Shown: positions 1 through 7,762, counted from the stretch's first letter. The stretch: DNA of 64,000 bases from an uncultured virus (IMG/VR IMGVR_UViG_3300010002_000006) (IMGVR_UViG_3300010002_000006:124001-188000); one strand, 5' to 3'. The notes: generated from the sequence alone by a model not told the origin. Made by a program: numbers and translations.

Positions 1-1102
1 TATCGAAGTAGTAGGTCTTGAACGCCTCAGCAAGCATGAGGTAATATTGTTCAAAGACATACTTGTTCTTCATAATCGCCTGCTCAAACTTCACATGCGA
101 ATATCCACCAAACCCTTTGGTGTTGATACGGTACTTCATGACGTCCATACGGTGAGTATACGCAATCACGTGGATGTACTTGGTGTACTCCGGTGGTCGC
201 AGATAACAACGTGCAGGGAAGATCTGACTGTAGATCCCGTTGATAAAGTCATCGTCACCCTGAAGGGTTGCTGACAACGCCGCGGTCTTGGCATGGTTAC
301 CAAACATCAGTGACATATAAACCGAGTAGATCGATTCATGTGCTTCATCAATGATGCGATAGCCACAGGCTAAGTCCCGATAGACCTCGTCCATGCACGG
401 CAAACTGGGATCTTCTTTGACGCGTTTTAAGTACACGTCAATTTTAGTTAATGGCAAGATAATGAAGGTCGGATTGATCAGGCCCTCTTTCATTGCCCGA
501 TGTACATCCTCAACCGAATACTTGTCAACTACCAAGATGTCAGTTGGGTGAACATCCAGAAACTCACCAATGGTTTTAATCCAGATGTCGACATAACGGG
601 GAAGCACGGTAATCAACGTACGTTTACCTAACAGGTATGCCGTATAGATTGCCATAAAGCTTTTACCAAACCCGGTGGTTGCGTTGTTCACCACCACTGG
701 ACTCGGGCCCGTCATAAACTCCACGTAATCTTCCTGCAGTTCGTTACGGGGTTTGATGTCTGGATTCCGCAATTTGATCTTTGCGGTGGCTCCCTGGATT
801 ACCGCTTCGTCCTGAATCAGAATACGGTTTTCGGCATAGCCATTGTCTTTCATTAGCTGAATCAGTTCAGGCAGTTTCTCTACGTTGAACCTTAGCTCGG
901 TTTTATCAGCGTTGAACCGAGCGAATACATGACTGACTTCCCACTTGAAGGCGTTGGGTCCACCTCCAGGGACGGGAGTTTTCTGAATTCGATAAAAGTG
1001 TTTCTTACAAAAAGGAATGAGCACTTGTTTAACGAGTTCAGGTTTAAAGTCAGTCAAACGAACATAGTTGTTCGCTTTGTGCACCACTAACGTTCTGCGC
1101 AT
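1..1102 (-). CDS. SF2 (DExH-box) helicase, phiKZ gp75-like; runs off the window edge
   Basis: Not in the ORF track. Read manually from ATG at 1102 (MRRTLVVHKANN...). Walker A NATTGFGKS, motif II IIDEAH, motif III LSAT. Follows the nvRNAP beta' gene as in phiKZ-like phages. Confidence 0.85.
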   Translation of the reverse strand, partial: MRRTLVVHKANNYVRLTDFKPELVKQVLIPFCKKHFYRIQKTPVPGGGPNAFKWEVSHVFARFNADKTELRFNVEKLPELIQLMKDNGYAENRILIQDEAVIQGATAKIKLRNPDIKPRNELQEDYVEFMTGPSPVVVNNATTGFGKSFMAIYTAYLLGKRTLITVLPRYVDIWIKTIGEFLDVHPTDILVVDKYSVEDVHRAMKEGLINPTFIILPLTKIDVYLKRVKEDPSLPCMDEVYRDLACGYRIIDEAHESIYSVYMSLMFGNHAKTAALSATLQGDDDFINGIYSQIFPARCYLRPPEYTKYIHVIAYTHRMDVMKYRINTKGFGGYSHVKFEQAIMKNKYVFEQYYLMLAEAFKTYYFD

Positions 1103-1234
1103 CTGACAAACCTCTTTACTGAAAAACCCTATATAATAGGGGGCGTCCAAAAGATACTTAGCTACCTGATTTGGACTCCAGTACTTTTAAATGCTAATTC
1201 CTTTTTGCGGGAAATCCATTTCCCCTACAGATAC

Positions 1235-1792
1235 TTACGTCTCTATAGATAGTGTCCCAGTAATCCATCCCCAACCTTTGATCGTCAGTTCCCGTGTTTT
1301 GAGATCTAACGTAAGGTCAATCAGAATAGGAACGTTGGTTAATGCCAGGCCGTTAAACTGACCGGTCAAGATACCCGGTTGTTTCTCAGCCAACTCAACG
1401 CGCCATCCCCAATCCAACAACCCTTCAGATAACCTGCCTTCTGCTTCGCAAATATAGTAGCGGTAAGGTTTTTCAGGTGTACCGATCTGTTCTTCAGTAA
1501 GGGTGAGTTTGCTGAGGCCGTGTTCGCCGCATTGTAAATAGACGTAATCGATGATTTCACCGGGTTCGTCTACTTTCTTTAAGTCTAACTTATTGACATC
1601 GATGTTGGGACCGTCGTACCAATATGCTGCCGTATACGCTTCGACAAACCGTGCTTTGGTGTATTCACGGTCTTCGGGTTTGATACGGGACTCAAAGTTC
1701 TTCCACTCTTCCTGAAGGGATTTGTCCAATTGAGATTCGACAAGTTTAAACCGCCGTTCTACTTCTTCGGGAAGAGTAGCGGTTACTTTCCC
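1235..1792 (-). CDS. Paralogue-array member 4; probably the -1 frameshift extension of 1783..2211
   Basis: Frame is open from 1798 to 1235 with no ATG/GTG near its 5' end (the track uses TTG 1729). It is entered exactly by a -1 slip at GGGAAAG (1786..1792). C-terminal LDLKTRELTIKGWGW matches the neighbours. Confidence 0.65.
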   Translation of the reverse strand, partial: GKVTATLPEEVERRFKLVESQLDKSLQEEWKNFESRIKPEDREYTKARFVEAYTAAYWYDGPNIDVNKLDLKKVDEPGEIIDYVYLQCGEHGLSKLTLTEEQIGTPEKPYRYYICEAEGRLSEGLLDWGWRVELAEKQPGILTGQFNGLALTNVPILIDLTLDLKTRELTIKGWGWITGTLSIET

Positions 1793-2211
1793 AGATCTTC
1801 ACCGTCGCCCAGTTTGTCTTCGGCCAGGTTCTGATCGTGTTCTGCGATGGTTGGCAGCGATTCGATTTCCACGTTGATCAGGGCAGAGGTCCAGCCATAA
1901 CCGGCGGCGCGAGTTTGACCTTCAGCGACGTCCACTTCCAGGATCATGGACAGGGTCGCAGGAATGTCTTTCTCTGCGTCAGAATACTGCAGGATGAAAC
2001 AGGCGTCCTGTTTGGTTTTATCAAATGACGGCACCATCTTTCTTGGTGTTTCAAATTCCACCATCACGTCGTCACCGTTTTTGATTTCGACCAGGAAGAA
2101 ACTGAGTGCACCAACTGCAACGCCTGCTGGCAGTGCAGTTAATGGCGCAACGGTTTTCTCTGGCAGGGTTGAGTCCAGGGTAATTTCAAAGCCTTCAACT
2201 TGTGTGTTCAT
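1783..2211 (-). CDS. Hypothetical protein, paralogue-array member 3
   Basis: 142 aa; motif FETPRKMVPSFD; ends CTG GGA AAG TAA. Confidence 0.8.
   Translation of the reverse strand: MNTQVEGFEITLDSTLPEKTVAPLTALPAGVAVGALSFFLVEIKNGDDVMVEFETPRKMVPSFDKTKQDACFILQYSDAEKDIPATLSMILEVDVAEGQTRAAGYGWTSALINVEIESLPTIAEHDQNLAEDKLGDGEDLGK
1786..1792 (-). promoter_or_regulatory. Programmed -1 ribosomal frameshift heptamer G GGA AAG
   Basis: In-phase X XXY YYZ heptamer immediately before the stop codon. Hairpin CTACTCTT-CCCG-AAGA(A)GTAG starts 6 nt downstream. The -1 frame continues for 183 codons. Confidence 0.7.
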
Positions 2212-2220
2212 ACTAAGTCC

Positions 2221-2592
2221 TTACGGTTTATATACGTGGATGTTGACATAATGGAAACCACTGCCTTTGATCTTAATCTGACGCTTGGTCAAATCGATCT
2301 CACCAGTGACTTTAACACGGGCATCTTCGGCCGGTGACCGACTTGCCCATTGGATAATCAGGGTATCTTTCTTCTTCTCTTCGTCGAACGTTACCACAAA
2401 GGCTTTCTTGGGTACCACAGCGAAATAGAAGTTATCTTCGTTTTGAGGGACTAATGATGCACCCACCAAAATAAAGAGATGCTCACAGCTCAGCTCATCG
2501 CCGTCTGGAATAGAGAAAGTCTCACCACGGTTCACTGAATAGACAAACAGGGGAGGGGCTTCTTCCATGATCTTTTCTAAGTTTACTTTCAT
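2221..2592 (-). CDS. Hypothetical protein, paralogue-array member 2
   Basis: 123 aa; VVPKKAFVVTFD and IDLTKRQIKIKGSGF motifs shared with neighbours. Confidence 0.8.
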   Translation of the reverse strand: MKVNLEKIMEEAPPLFVYSVNRGETFSIPDGDELSCEHLFILVGASLVPQNEDNFYFAVVPKKAFVVTFDEEKKKDTLIIQWASRSPAEDARVKVTGEIDLTKRQIKIKGSGFHYVNIHVYKP

Positions 2593-2598
2593 ACGCGG

Positions 2599-2961
2599 TT
2601 ACTCAGGTTTAACAGCGTCTTGCTCATGCAGGTGTAGGACAATAAAGTCGAACCCATCACCTTCGATGGTGATCATTCCTTCTTTCAGCAGCGCTTTACC
2701 GCGAACCGAAACCGAGTCATGACCTTCAATGCGTTCGTCAATATTGGCATAGGCAAAGATCTGTTCGTTATCTACTTTGGACAGATCAAAACTTGGAACA
2801 AACTTACGTGGGGTAGTAAAGAAAATTCCTTCACCTTCCGCCACGTGGACTTCTGCAATTTCCAGCTTGATATTTTTACACAGCTCGCGACCCATTTCAT
2901 GGGTGTTGCCGTTTTTAATGGTGATGGTATTGGCTGGGAAATTAACAGTGTTTTCGTTCAT
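2599..2961 (-). CDS. Hypothetical protein, paralogue-array member 1
   Basis: 120 aa; FTTPRKFVPSFD and ITIEGDGF motifs; RBS AGGA; early-type promoter motif upstream. Confidence 0.8.
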   Translation of the reverse strand: MNENTVNFPANTITIKNGNTHEMGRELCKNIKLEIAEVHVAEGEGIFFTTPRKFVPSFDLSKVDNEQIFAYANIDERIEGHDSVSVRGKALLKEGMITIEGDGFDFIVLHLHEQDAVKPE

Positions 2962-3074: not shown

Positions 3075-3389
3075 TCAATCGTCGTTCTGTTCGGAGCTTG
3101 GGAACATCGGTGAGAGCTTGTCCAATTTAGCACTGAGTTTAGGATCTGCTTTGGCCACACTGACGTCGTGTTGGTTTTGCAGGTTTAGCCAGAACTGAGG
3201 TGTCGTTCCCAGAACTTTGCCCAGGCGCAATGCCAGATTTGCAGTAACTGCACTTTTGCCGTTGATCACCCGACTCACTACACCTTTATCCACATCCAGC
3301 GCTTCGGCCAGTTTACCGGCGGTAAGACCGGTGGGATCCAGGTATTCGTATTTCAGGATATCTCCGGGGGTCGATGCTTCACGCAACAT
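3075..3389 (-). CDS. higA: HigA-family antitoxin / XRE HTH protein (no toxin partner)
   Basis: Typical HigA pattern PGDILKYEYL...LAEALDV...INGKSAVTANLALRLGKVLGTTPQFWLNLQ. Confidence 0.8.
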   Translation of the reverse strand: MLREASTPGDILKYEYLDPTGLTAGKLAEALDVDKGVVSRVINGKSAVTANLALRLGKVLGTTPQFWLNLQNQHDVSVAKADPKLSAKLDKLSPMFPSSEQNDD

Positions 3390-3642: not shown

Positions 3643-5664
3643 TTAATCGCGGGCGATCGGATGCATAAACGCTTCCAATGCACCGCCTTGGCGGTTTTTG
3701 ATCAGCATGTTGTTTGGATGTCCAAACAGTGACGTTCCCTGCCACCCATACTGGAGACTGTTTCCCAGACCTCGGCTTAACACCATCTCATGAAGGCCCA
3801 CAAAATTACGTGGTTCTTCACCCACCGGTAAACCATAATCGAGATTCTCCGGATCACGTGCCATACAAGACCACAGGAAGATGGAGTGCATGATGCTGTT
3901 GGCATCCTTGTACTTTTCATCTACCACTTTCCAGAAGGCAATCATGGTCTCGCCATGCAGCTCTGGAGTGATCTTCATGTCCCAACGTCGCGTGACGTTC
4001 TGGAACTTTAAGAAGTTCTCTACACGTTTACGGTATGCATCCAGATCTTCGTTGACCTGTGGTAATTCAAACGCCGGCTCTTTAAAGCTGTAGTCCTTCA
4101 AGGAGATCTTGAAGTTACGGCCTTCCTCTTCCATGGGGCGAGACAGCAGATACTCAATGAACGTTTTGGTCATGCGTGCATCACGCGAGGCAATCGTGGT
4201 AGTCAGTACCGGGAAGTAAGTCGCCTTACGGTCATCAAACATCGGGTTAACGATACTGACCTTGAGCTTGATACTTTCATAGGTTCTGAATCGGGTCGCA
4301 TCAAGATCATCCAAACTGTCCATGAACTGGAAGTCAGAGAAGTCCTGCTGCGTTTCTTTATCCAGGATGATATACGGATCGGATTCCCCGTTCAGGATAT
4401 CTTTGTGGAAATAGATAAAGTCCCCGGTCTCATCGGTTGTAATGTACGGGAGATCCGCACGTTCAACTTTAAAGCCCACCGAGGTTGCCGAACCAATACG
4501 GTGTTTGGTTTTCAAGATCGACTGACCAATAGGCTCAGCAAAGGTTGACCCGTAGAAGAGACCCGGTACAGCGCCCTTCTTGGTATACGGGTTATAGGGG
4601 AGTGCCGACTCCATCTTGCCAAAGCAGACTGAACAGGGTTTCCCACCTTTACTGTTGTGACACCAGGCAATATCACGAATACGAATCGTGTCCCCGGTTT
4701 CCAGCTTCTTGATCTCGTCACCAGTTAACAGGGTATTGGTACCATCTTCATTGATCGTCCAACGCCCAACCAGTGCTTTCTTAAACTCCGTACTGATGAT
4801 CTTTAACACCGGACCGGTTCGCGATCCACAGTCGGTTTGATACTGCACCGCCTGCACGACCTGTGCCAGGTTGTGAACCTTTTTATGGAACCACTCGGAG
4901 TCCTGCAACGCCGAGCCGTTACTGATCAGGGAGAAGCCCGCACCTTTGGAGTCACCGAGTGAATCCGCCAGGTTGGTAATCCCGTCTGCGTAACTGGTCA
5001 TGATGGTGTTTGGTAAGATCACGTTGTTCAAGTCGAAGACGTCACCACGTGCCACGATCAACTGGAACGACTGCGTGGAGTTCACCGAACGAGTACGATA
5101 GAGTAAGGTAAAGACATAGGGGTTCATGTCCTGCTCACTCATCATGATCTCATCGAACTCCTTGTGTGCATCCGCCATATTGGTTTTACGGCTGTGTACA
5201 CGTTCACGCAGGTCTTTGATTTTGGGATGGCGATAGATATGCACGATATCCACCGCACGGGCTGAAACCACTCCCTCTTCACCTTTGATCGCCAGATAGT
5301 TATGACACTGGTTATGCCAGGTAAAACTCAACTGCTTAATGAAATCGTAAAACACCGGGTCATTGTACTTCGGCATTAAACGACCCAAGAAGTTGTCGAT
5401 GGGTTTCTTTAACGTGTCGTCATCCACAAATGCTTGACGACCGTTTTTACTTTTCAGTAACGCCAGCTCATCAATGTAGTAGGGCTCGTCATTATAATGA
5501 CGGTGAACAACCAGACCAAACCAGCTTATTGCCAACATCCATGTGTCGGTGATTTGCGCTTCACCTTGATCATCAATGACATTGATCTTTACGCGACGCT
5601 CAGTGAACTGCAACATGCTGAGGCACGACAGATTTGCAAACTCACGTAGTTTTATCGTCTTCAC
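3643..5664 (-). CDS. Non-virion RNA polymerase beta' C-terminal subunit (phiKZ gp74-like)
   Basis: TDCGS, zinc site CHNSKGGKPCSVCFG, trigger-loop-like FAEPIGQSILKTKH; gene order. Confidence 0.85.
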   Translation of the reverse strand: MKTIKLREFANLSCLSMLQFTERRVKINVIDDQGEAQITDTWMLAISWFGLVVHRHYNDEPYYIDELALLKSKNGRQAFVDDDTLKKPIDNFLGRLMPKYNDPVFYDFIKQLSFTWHNQCHNYLAIKGEEGVVSARAVDIVHIYRHPKIKDLRERVHSRKTNMADAHKEFDEIMMSEQDMNPYVFTLLYRTRSVNSTQSFQLIVARGDVFDLNNVILPNTIMTSYADGITNLADSLGDSKGAGFSLISNGSALQDSEWFHKKVHNLAQVVQAVQYQTDCGSRTGPVLKIISTEFKKALVGRWTINEDGTNTLLTGDEIKKLETGDTIRIRDIAWCHNSKGGKPCSVCFGKMESALPYNPYTKKGAVPGLFYGSTFAEPIGQSILKTKHRIGSATSVGFKVERADLPYITTDETGDFIYFHKDILNGESDPYIILDKETQQDFSDFQFMDSLDDLDATRFRTYESIKLKVSIVNPMFDDRKATYFPVLTTTIASRDARMTKTFIEYLLSRPMEEEGRNFKISLKDYSFKEPAFELPQVNEDLDAYRKRVENFLKFQNVTRRWDMKITPELHGETMIAFWKVVDEKYKDANSIMHSIFLWSCMARDPENLDYGLPVGEEPRNFVGLHEMVLSRGLGNSLQYGWQGTSLFGHPNNMLIKNRQGGALEAFMHPIARD

Positions 5665-7738
5665 GTTCTTTCCTTAATGATAATCCAAAATCAGAGAGCA
5701 TACTGTCGATGACCTGAAGAGAGTGGTTCTGACGCTCTTCACCGGGCTTGATCAATTCAGAAATCAAGAACGGGTTAGGGGCACGGATCAGTCGTTTCAC
5801 TGAGATGTCTAATAGTTCAGCCGAGTTCGCCCAGGCCAGCATGCGCGTTGCGGCCGCACCACCTTTCTGGTTCACAAACAAGCGACCTTCGGTTTCACCC
5901 ACGTTACGGTTCAGTGTCGCACGATAGAAATCCCGCGCACGTTCATGTTTCGAGAGTGAGGTTGGCAGACCAAAGATGTTGAGCTTTGGCGTCGACTGAC
6001 ACGAGATGTCATCACCGAACTTATCCAGCATGATGTAGTAGACACTACTGATCACAATGGGCTGACGAGAACGTTTCTTCTCACCGAACTCATTGACCCA
6101 ACTTACCGGGGTCGGTTGGATTTCTGGATAGCGATCCACGAATCGTTCCATGATTCGCACACCCTGGAGATCATTGGTGTTGTTACCCAATGCCGAGAAC
6201 TCATTCTCATCCTTGGCAATCCAGTGCAGGTGATTAAGACGCATCTCCTCGGTAAAGGTATCCATAATTGCGGCATGTTCAGGTGACGCAGTTTCATAGA
6301 AACGATAAGCGATGTCCCAGGCAGTCTGGTAATCTTTATTGTTATACGCTTCCATGATTTTAGGATAGAGGTGGATGTTCACGAAGTTAATGTCAAGTTC
6401 CATAAACGAGTTATAGATCTGACGACGGTAACCCGGTGTGTTCCCCACTAACATATCCGCTACGTTGCCGTGGTCATCAACCGGTGCCATATGACTTGGC
6501 AATACCTTCATGATGATGGATTTGTTTCCGTCCATACCGGTGTTCTTAAAGCGGGTCTTACCTTCCACATCTTCACGCAGGTGAATCTGCACACGCCAGT
6601 CTTTCAACTGAATGTTGCTCATCTTACGTTTGATCTTGGTATAGCGACCATTACTGTTGTGTGTACTGAAGTCACGGGTAATGTTCGCCTGACCCTGGAA
6701 ACAGATGAAGTTCCACAGCGCATGGGTGATCGGTACCTTTTTGTCTTTGTATTCGCGTTGCTTCTCTTTGAACCAGCGAACAATCTCATTCGCAAATTCA
6801 TTTTGACGCTCTTCGATTTTCTCAAACATCAAGGTGTGTGGATGACTGCGCTTTTCGGCTCGCTTGTTGTTCGACACATTCTTATACCGCTCGGTCATGA
6901 CTTCAATATCCATGACCACACAGTTTGCACTGGAGTGGAAGAGTATGTCATAGGTAGAATCCGGAATCATCAGCGCCTCTTTAGTGAGACCTGACATCGC
7001 GGTTTCCACCGTCTTACGACGAAAGCCCATAACGATACCGTCGGCACGAACCCGTTCACCGGCCAGCGGTGTAGGTTGAGGATTGTCGATGGTTCCGTAC
7101 AAGTTCAACGGAATGTATTCATCTTCGTTCCACTGGAAGTCGTGACTGCGCTTAAACGTCACACCGATCTTCTTGGCGTAGTGTTCAAAGATCACCACGG
7201 CATCCTCTTCGGTGTAGACATGCGACATGGCTGCCACTTTGGTTTCCACACCCGGAACCCATTCATTACTTTCCGTGATACGAGCTGAGGTAGCAAACAC
7301 AGCACCCTTTTTAAAGGTCTTGCCTTTCTCAACCCGACGCAGCATATCTTTGTCGTATTTGTACTCGAAGCCAAGCTCCATATTTTGGGTGTTGAACTTC
7401 GGCATTTCAATGAGGTCGTAATAACCGGTGTCCAGGTTTTTCACGATAACGTAATGAGAGCCCCACGGCATCGGTTCACGATCATTGAGAATGTTCTTGA
7501 CGAACAAGATCTTCTCAACTTCAACCTCTGATTGGGTTTCAACAATGCGGGCACCTTTGGCATATTCCTGCTCATCACCTGAGGAGTATTTGCGATTGGT
7601 GGTTCCGTGAATAACAGCCGCCTTGCCTTGGTTCTTACCCAGCATGTACAAACGAGAAGGTGAGTTAGTTGCGCGGTTGGTGTTCATCCCAATCGCAACG
7701 CCCGCCGTATTCGGTCTAATTTGATTTGATTTATCCAT
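5642..7738 (-). CDS. Non-virion RNA polymerase beta C-terminal subunit (phiKZ gp71-73-like), uninterrupted
   Basis: EEDAVVI, GMDGNKSII (cf. GRHGNKGV), RNVGETEGR (cf. RFGEME); start set at ATG 7738 after GAGGTG. Confidence 0.85.
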   Translation of the reverse strand: MDKSNQIRPNTAGVAIGMNTNRATNSPSRLYMLGKNQGKAAVIHGTTNRKYSSGDEQEYAKGARIVETQSEVEVEKILFVKNILNDREPMPWGSHYVIVKNLDTGYYDLIEMPKFNTQNMELGFEYKYDKDMLRRVEKGKTFKKGAVFATSARITESNEWVPGVETKVAAMSHVYTEEDAVVIFEHYAKKIGVTFKRSHDFQWNEDEYIPLNLYGTIDNPQPTPLAGERVRADGIVMGFRRKTVETAMSGLTKEALMIPDSTYDILFHSSANCVVMDIEVMTERYKNVSNNKRAEKRSHPHTLMFEKIEERQNEFANEIVRWFKEKQREYKDKKVPITHALWNFICFQGQANITRDFSTHNSNGRYTKIKRKMSNIQLKDWRVQIHLREDVEGKTRFKNTGMDGNKSIIMKVLPSHMAPVDDHGNVADMLVGNTPGYRRQIYNSFMELDINFVNIHLYPKIMEAYNNKDYQTAWDIAYRFYETASPEHAAIMDTFTEEMRLNHLHWIAKDENEFSALGNNTNDLQGVRIMERFVDRYPEIQPTPVSWVNEFGEKKRSRQPIVISSVYYIMLDKFGDDISCQSTPKLNIFGLPTSLSKHERARDFYRATLNRNVGETEGRLFVNQKGGAAATRMLAWANSAELLDISVKRLIRAPNPFLISELIKPGEERQNHSLQVIDSMLSDFGLSLRKEREDDKTT

Positions 7739-7762
7739 GTTACATGACACCTCTTTTCATTA

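Follow-up and report, generated by a model that had tools for sequence, protein, structure and literature searches.

In phage lambda, the heptamer G GGA AAG is the slippery site of the gpG/gpGT pair. The E. coli dnaX gene also undergoes a -1 shift, at a heptamer ending in the lysine codon AAG and followed by a stem-loop a few bases downstream; the shifted dnaX frame stops almost at once, so that the shift makes the shorter product. Passages of the review by Atkins et al. (2016, PMC5009743) describe G_GGA_AAG as highly shift-prone in E. coli. The same passages report Ig-like domains joined to phage proteins by frameshifting, as in T3 gene 10 and the Lactobacillus phage A2 capsid, among other cases (Fraser et al. 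2006, as cited in PMC5009743), and contain the proposal that mobile Ig-like modules landing out of frame become expressed through frameshifting. By analogy, these frameshift-appended Ig-like domains of phage proteins are the closest known kind to the locus described here. A literature search conducted outside subscription journals found no report of such a frameshift in giant phages.

The locus belongs to a 260,738-bp (260.7-kb) jumbo phage record with direct terminal repeats. The window, meaning the whole 64,000-nucleotide stretch that was analysed, corresponds to bases 124001-188000 of this record, and all features given below in window positions lie on its minus strand. ORF142 (1783..2211), which encodes the zero-frame product of 142 aa, ends in GAA GAT CTG GGA AAG TAA, giving the protein C-terminus GEDLGK. 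Its final two sense codons form the slippery heptamer G GGA AAG (1786..1792) in the frame X XXY YYZ, and the zero-frame stop TAA (1783..1785) abuts the heptamer. The -1 frame is closed upstream by a TGA at 1799..1801 and is open from 1798, where it reads AGA TCT GGG AAA GTA ACC GCT... and continues free of stops to 1237..1235, an ORF of 187 open codons (1235..1798). The two frames overlap by 13 nt (1798..1786), of which the heptamer occupies 7. Since the -1 frame is open only from 1798, a change of frame is confined to these 13 nt. A tandem slip at the heptamer would give a product of 142 + 183 = 325 aa with the junction ...EDLGK-VTATLPEEVER....

Past the heptamer, the -1 ORF has a stretch devoid of start codons (1730..1785, VTATLPEEVERRFKLVESQ). 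Its first ATG, GTG or TTG is the TTG at 1727..1729 (hereafter TTG 1729), the sole canonical start candidate for a free-standing product of 164 aa, and no ATG occurs further on. The coordinates and sizes that the initial annotation gave for ORF142 and its CTG GGA AAG TAA ending were correct, as was its description of a -1 ORF open from 1798 to 1235 with no ATG or GTG near the 5' end. The elements expected for tandem slippage, namely an in-frame heptamer, an abutting zero-frame stop and a long -1 ORF without a nearby start, were all found at this site.

On the evidence of the sequence, a programmed -1 frameshift at G GGA AAG is quite probable, and it would yield both a 142-aa and a 325-aa product. 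ORF142 and the start-less ORF behind it would then constitute one recoded gene. The majority of ribosomes would terminate at the TAA (1785..1783) and release a 142-aa beta-sandwich protein with a flexible tail. In a minority, the tRNAs on GGA and AAG would slip by -1 and re-pair with GGG and AAA within G GGA AAG (1792..1786), probably aided by the abutting stop codon and by a stem-loop at 1784..1749. The slipped ribosomes would read the -1 frame to 1235, producing 325 aa that comprise ORF142, the sequence VTATLPEEVER..., two helices and a second, Ig-like beta-sandwich. A mobile Ig-like module that landed out of frame behind ORF142 and came to be expressed through frameshifting would fit the known pattern. 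We infer the slip and its efficiency, the parts played by the stop and the hairpin, and the use of both products.

A metagenome scan identified one locus with the same gene array and layout, the 1,899-bp contig L003. Its ORF142 homologue, ORF153, shares 74% identity with ORF142 and ends in GAG GAC CTG GGA AAG TAA, with an identical heptamer (L003 1615-1621), the same TAA and the same GGTGA-derived TGA closing the -1 frame upstream. The -1 frame of L003 is open from the junction to the contig end. Comparison of the 19 codons that separate the heptamer from TTG 1729 revealed 14 nucleotide differences, distributed 3/1/10 over the -1-frame codon positions (binomial p 0.004), in a test that rests on one pair of sequences, the sole relative with DNA, and on 14-22 differences. 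At the codon level, 6 changes are synonymous and 6 non-synonymous, and 13 of the 19 residues are identical. When the comparison was extended to the 26 codons from the heptamer GGG to just before the ATG of L003 (24 codons after GGG AAA), the split was 6/2/14, and the -1 frame had 8 synonymous changes, compared with 0 and 2 for the other frames. Both other frames contain stops across the start-less stretch. Divergence per site is equal in the start-less stretch (0.25) and in ORF142 (0.24). By the measure of this pairwise sequence comparison, the start-less stretch evolves as coding sequence in the -1 frame. A conserved layout and coding-type evolution of the -1 frame, as expected for tandem slippage, were thus both found in this one relative.

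The start candidates of the two genomes do not align. The TTG of the window corresponds to CTA in L003, and the ATG of L003 to CAG in the window. Furthermore, pairing of a Shine-Dalgarno (SD) sequence, scored against the anti-SD motif as reference, amounted to 0 kcal/mol at TTG 1729. Among 8 other starts, 7 scored between -2.2 and -6.9 kcal/mol, and the GTG of RNAP702 scored 0. The initial annotation had proposed a 142-aa product and an approximately 325-aa two-domain fusion made by -1 frameshifting. This proposal is supported by L003, which retains heptamer, stop and open -1 frame, by the coding-like character of the start-less stretch, by the lack of conservation of the start positions and by the absence of SD pairing at TTG 1729. 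Some start codon is present 19-24 codons past the heptamer in each genome, which makes a free-standing product possible, and one initiated at TTG 1729 may be produced alongside the fusion.

Downstream of the heptamer, a stem-loop was identified at 1749..1784, consisting of a lower stem (1784-1780/1753-1749) and an upper stem (1779-1772/1767-1759). In a 41-nt context its predicted energy is -12.7 kcal/mol (z -2.55; 2 of 200 shuffles equal or better), whereas it does not stand out in a 76-nt context (z -0.76; 44 of 200 shuffles equal or better). The corresponding stem-loop in L003 is weaker, with -6.7 kcal/mol and z -1.17. The consensus of both sequences contains 13 pairs, of which 12 are invariant and 1 is compensatory (C-G to U-A), and the conserved stem-loop is best regarded as modest on this sequence evidence. 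The initial annotation placed it 6 nt after the heptamer, which holds for the upper stem; the flanking lower stem (pairs 1784-1749) begins after a gap of only 1 nt. Compared with the spacing of approximately 5-9 nt expected of a stimulatory structure, the locus thus offers a modest stem-loop whose lower stem lies 1 nt from the heptamer.

A GGTGA motif was also observed 6 nt 5' of the heptamer in three genomes (window 1796..1800, minus strand; L003 1604..1608; L001, the locus of Erwinia phage AH04, 3397..3401). We presume that this motif could pair with the 16S rRNA 3' end in the manner of the dnaX upstream stimulator. GGTGA also encodes a conserved Gly-Glu, and the meaning of its conservation is therefore ambiguous.

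Among named phages, the closest relative is Erwinia phage AH04 (262,639 bp, genus Meadowvirus), the only match of ORF142 in these searches. AH04 gp86 is 46% identical to ORF142 and ends in GCG GGA AAG TAG, with the same heptamer (L001 3408-3414) followed by a stop. Beyond gp86, the AH04 sequence offers 8 further -1-frame codons and then a conserved region upstream of the helicase gene, with no downstream ORF. Since AH04 has the heptamer without a downstream ORF, conservation of the heptamer alone is no evidence for frameshifting. Judging from the AH04 heptamer and from P0017, an ORF142 homologue of 130 aa that ends in GEETGK, the heptamer may be kept simply as the code for a conserved C-terminus. 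The same arrangement in AH04 indicates that the shifty C-terminus exists independently of the downstream module.

A further full-length relative, the 264,203-bp record that contains L004, encodes a 119-aa ORF142 homologue with no tail and no heptamer, and an unrelated 53-aa gene occupies the slot behind it. Homology of this 53-aa gene to the N-terminal helices of the -1 ORF was considered and rejected (BLASTP E 13). In both full genomes, a profile spanning the downstream ORF as well found the ORF142-like part alone, and the downstream module is therefore absent from AH04 and L004. On these sequence comparisons, the module is lineage-specific, having been either gained here or lost in the relatives, and the slot behind ORF142 is variable. 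Zero matches to the downstream ORF were obtained in DNA and protein searches of named phages. Scans of IMG/VR with single proteins, alignments and a cassette DNA pattern yielded nothing beyond L004, and no cassette relatives were found in the GTDB genome contigs searched.

At the protein level, the -1 ORF shows 69-71% identity to cluster P0003, with near-identity over the final 90 residues. This cluster comprises 5 members on 9 contigs, all of 155 aa and called from ATG. The ORF142 homologues of cluster P0016 comprise 6 members, all of 153 aa and likewise on 9 contigs, and P0016 itself ends in GEDLGK. The constant lengths of the P0003 and P0016 clusters imply a stable split layout and speak against both a recent break and a sequencing error.

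An in-frame fusion of ORF142 followed by ORF164 was absent from the 8 profile matches recovered among 1.84 billion representatives, and from the 2 matches of a word-based search over 102-328 aa. The 8 profile matches consisted of P0003, P0004 and six giant proteins, one of them P0005 (5,065 aa); the other five were scanned and carry DUF7507/DUF11 repeats. In P0004 (257 aa), a distant relative, a single ORF combines the two domain types in reversed order, with the sandwich of the -1 ORF preceding the ORF142-like domain; P0004 shares 49% identity with the -1 ORF over 110 aa. The initial annotation had pointed to conservation of the heptamer or in-frame fusions in related phages as a check. The heptamer was indeed kept in L003 and AH04, while a fusion in the same order was not found in these searches and P0004 presents the reverse order. 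The called start of P0004 aligns with residue 76 of the -1 ORF and, judging from this alignment, its true N-terminus may also lack a start. A protein atlas search gave no usable match.

The structural model of ORF142 (pLDDT 72) places a beta-sandwich at residues 1-118, after which come a helix and a disordered end, and this variable, low-confidence C-terminal tail could serve as a linker. The model of the -1 ORF, with a low pLDDT of 61, includes helices at residues 11-36 and 48-62 and a beta-sandwich at residues 82-186 with 8 strands of at least 3 residues. The 183 aa added after the shift are thus predicted to form two helices and then an Ig-like beta-sandwich. A VIA-wide structure search with the -1 ORF returned generic beta-sandwiches, the best with Z 8.5 and rmsd 2.9 over 94 residues, and a jumbo-phage capsid domain with Z 7.1, both values in the range that the search tool calls common. 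For ORF142, a Foldseek search of the PDB gave weak matches only, with none at E of 0.001 or below, and its BFVD matches were uncharacterised giant-phage proteins. No Pfam family exceeded the threshold for the 4 proteins searched, and the -1 ORF had 0 families at E up to 1. PHROGs returned matches of unknown function only (E 0.04 and 0.088). The -1 ORF has no direct Pfam Ig match, and only its profile reaches the DUF7507/DUF11 repeat proteins.

The expected frequency of such sites was also considered. With 4 occurrences in the window and 7.16 expected, GGGAAAG is not enriched. The chance of any X XXY YYZ in the 13-nt overlap is approximately 1% (3 in-frame positions, 1/256 each). A scan of the entire 260,738 bp required an ORF of 60 aa or more, any X XXY YYZ within the final 15 codons and a -1 extension of no fewer than 100 codons; it retained 5 ORFs, namely ORF142 and four ORFs of 64-79 aa. 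By itself the heptamer is within chance, and it is the comparative sequence evidence that raises the finding above it. Transcriptional slippage was rejected, as the runs of identical bases at the site are only three long.

The main alternative explanation, which we consider unlikely, is that the locus holds two genes. The downstream one would have its own start, TTG 1729 here and ATG in the L003 lineage, perhaps used through re-initiation by ribosomes that have just terminated at the TAA 54 nt upstream; a conserved RNA element such as the hairpin would lie between the genes, and the heptamer would be a by-product of the Gly-Lys C-terminus. Gene callers do give free-standing proteins of 164 aa and 155 aa, and the AH04 heptamer and stop with nothing behind, together with the GK ending of P0017, fit a by-product. 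The missing same-order fusion in the profile search and the lack of GGGAAAG enrichment in the window point in the same direction. The conserved stem-loop covers part of the start-less stretch and could account for some of its conservation, but the codon-position bias extends 3' of the stem-loop, where RNA structure explains nothing, and upstream of the TTG it places 10 of 14 differences at third positions, with 6 synonymous changes in 19 codons. The two start positions also differ, each being a non-start codon in the other genome, and TTG 1729 lacks SD pairing. Moreover, the helix predicted for residues 11-36 of the -1 ORF passes unbroken through the TTG site.

A broken gene or assembly error, in which a one-base indel split a single 325-aa gene whose downstream part is now decaying, appears highly improbable. 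A single-base deletion at the junction would give exactly this layout, but the same frame relation is present in the independent metagenome contig L003 and is implied by the two constant-length clusters on 9 contigs each. Over the part that lies on the L003 contig, the downstream ORF has diverged, with 37 of 69 residues identical, and its C-terminal domain is strongly conserved relative to P0003, which argues against decay. Programmed frameshifting at the heptamer therefore remains the preferred reading of the locus.

The initial annotation also located this site away from any tail-chaperone context, and the neighbouring genes bear this out, as they comprise RNA-polymerase-subunit-like genes, an HTH protein and a helicase. 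Two large ORFs of 673 and 702 aa with GTG starts occupy 3643..7750; neither has a Pfam family at E 0.001, and the AH04 counterpart of one of them is annotated as an RNA polymerase subunit, an identity that would be in keeping with the divergent, split polymerases known from giant phages. An HTH_3 protein of 104 aa (3075..3389; Pfam HTH_3, E 1.9e-7) lies directly after a 65-aa ORF without a family. Its AH04 counterpart is annotated as a DNA binding protein, and we take its sequence to resemble HigA-type antitoxins.

Immediately upstream of ORF142 lie two paralogues, ORF123 (2221..2592) and ORF120 (2599..2961), which share FVPSFD and G-x-GF motifs with it. The three genes form a tandem array of paralogues that encode small beta-sandwich proteins of 120, 123 and 142 aa, and AH04 (gp84-86) and L003 keep all of them. 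In L004, counterparts of two were observed within the stretch listed. Structural relatives of the array include uncharacterised proteins in pEt-SU, N1M2, PhiEaH1, 201phi2-1, Noxifer and other giant phages. The -1 ORF shows weak similarity to the array (E 0.006 and 0.017 over 15-34 residues).

Downstream of the -1 ORF is the helicase gene, with no tape-measure or tail gene nearby. Between the -1 ORF stop and the helicase, an 85-nt block (window 1141..1225, minus strand; L001 3443..3528; L004 3068..3150) is, on comparison by eye, near-identical in the window, AH04 and L004, even though the three have different genes immediately upstream. This block contains a GGGAAA-n4-TTTCCC palindrome followed by AAAGGAATTAGCATTTAAAAGTACT... 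and, from its sequence, looks like a regulatory element for the helicase gene. The helicase is listed here from a TTG at 1150 (minus strand); in AH04 and L004 it starts at an ATG (MRRTLV...), which in the window is found at 1102..1100 preceded by AGAGG, so that the shorter start is likely.

If the frameshift is confirmed, giant phages would gain a comparatively well-supported frameshift site outside tail-chaperone and capsid genes. The shifty C-terminus, present in AH04 with nothing behind it, would represent a docking point for a mobile domain. Since gene callers split or truncate the gene in every relative seen, current annotations would also miss the 325-aa product and mis-start the downstream protein. 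A bolder proposal, which we regard as quite unlikely, is that short and long forms are made at a set ratio, as with gpG/gpGT, for a process unrelated to tails. The short form would be the bulk subunit, the second binding domain of the rare long form would nucleate or cap an assembly specific to giant phages, and the whole array beside the RNA polymerase and helicase genes would constitute this machinery. As it stands, the locus adds a likely example to a known trick; it introduces no new type of mechanism and leaves the knowledge of frameshifting unchanged.

Among the known systems, the lambda gpG/gpGT pair, as covered in part by the cited review, shares the same heptamer and the production of a short and a C-terminally extended protein from one message by a shift near the end of the first ORF. 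Unlike in lambda, the heptamer here abuts the stop and has a conserved hairpin behind it, the surroundings contain neither a tape-measure gene nor a tail gene, and no match to a tail chaperone was obtained in Pfam or PHROGs. Assignment as a lambda G/GT tail chaperone was rejected because both the position test (upstream of a tape-measure gene) and the family test fail. As in dnaX, the translation system is bacterial and the heptamer ends in Lys-AAG with a stem-loop a few bases beyond it, but the shift here makes the longer product. With respect to the frameshift-appended Ig-like domains, the carriers named in the passages cited are capsid or tail proteins, whereas the carrier here is a small protein in a paralogue array that sits between RNA-polymerase-subunit-like genes and a helicase. 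The appended part also differs in having approximately 75 residues of helix before the sandwich and no direct Pfam Ig family. As in the examples covered by those passages, a -1 shift towards the end of the carrier gene would equip some of the molecules with a C-terminal beta-sandwich, and the module is present in some relatives and missing in others.
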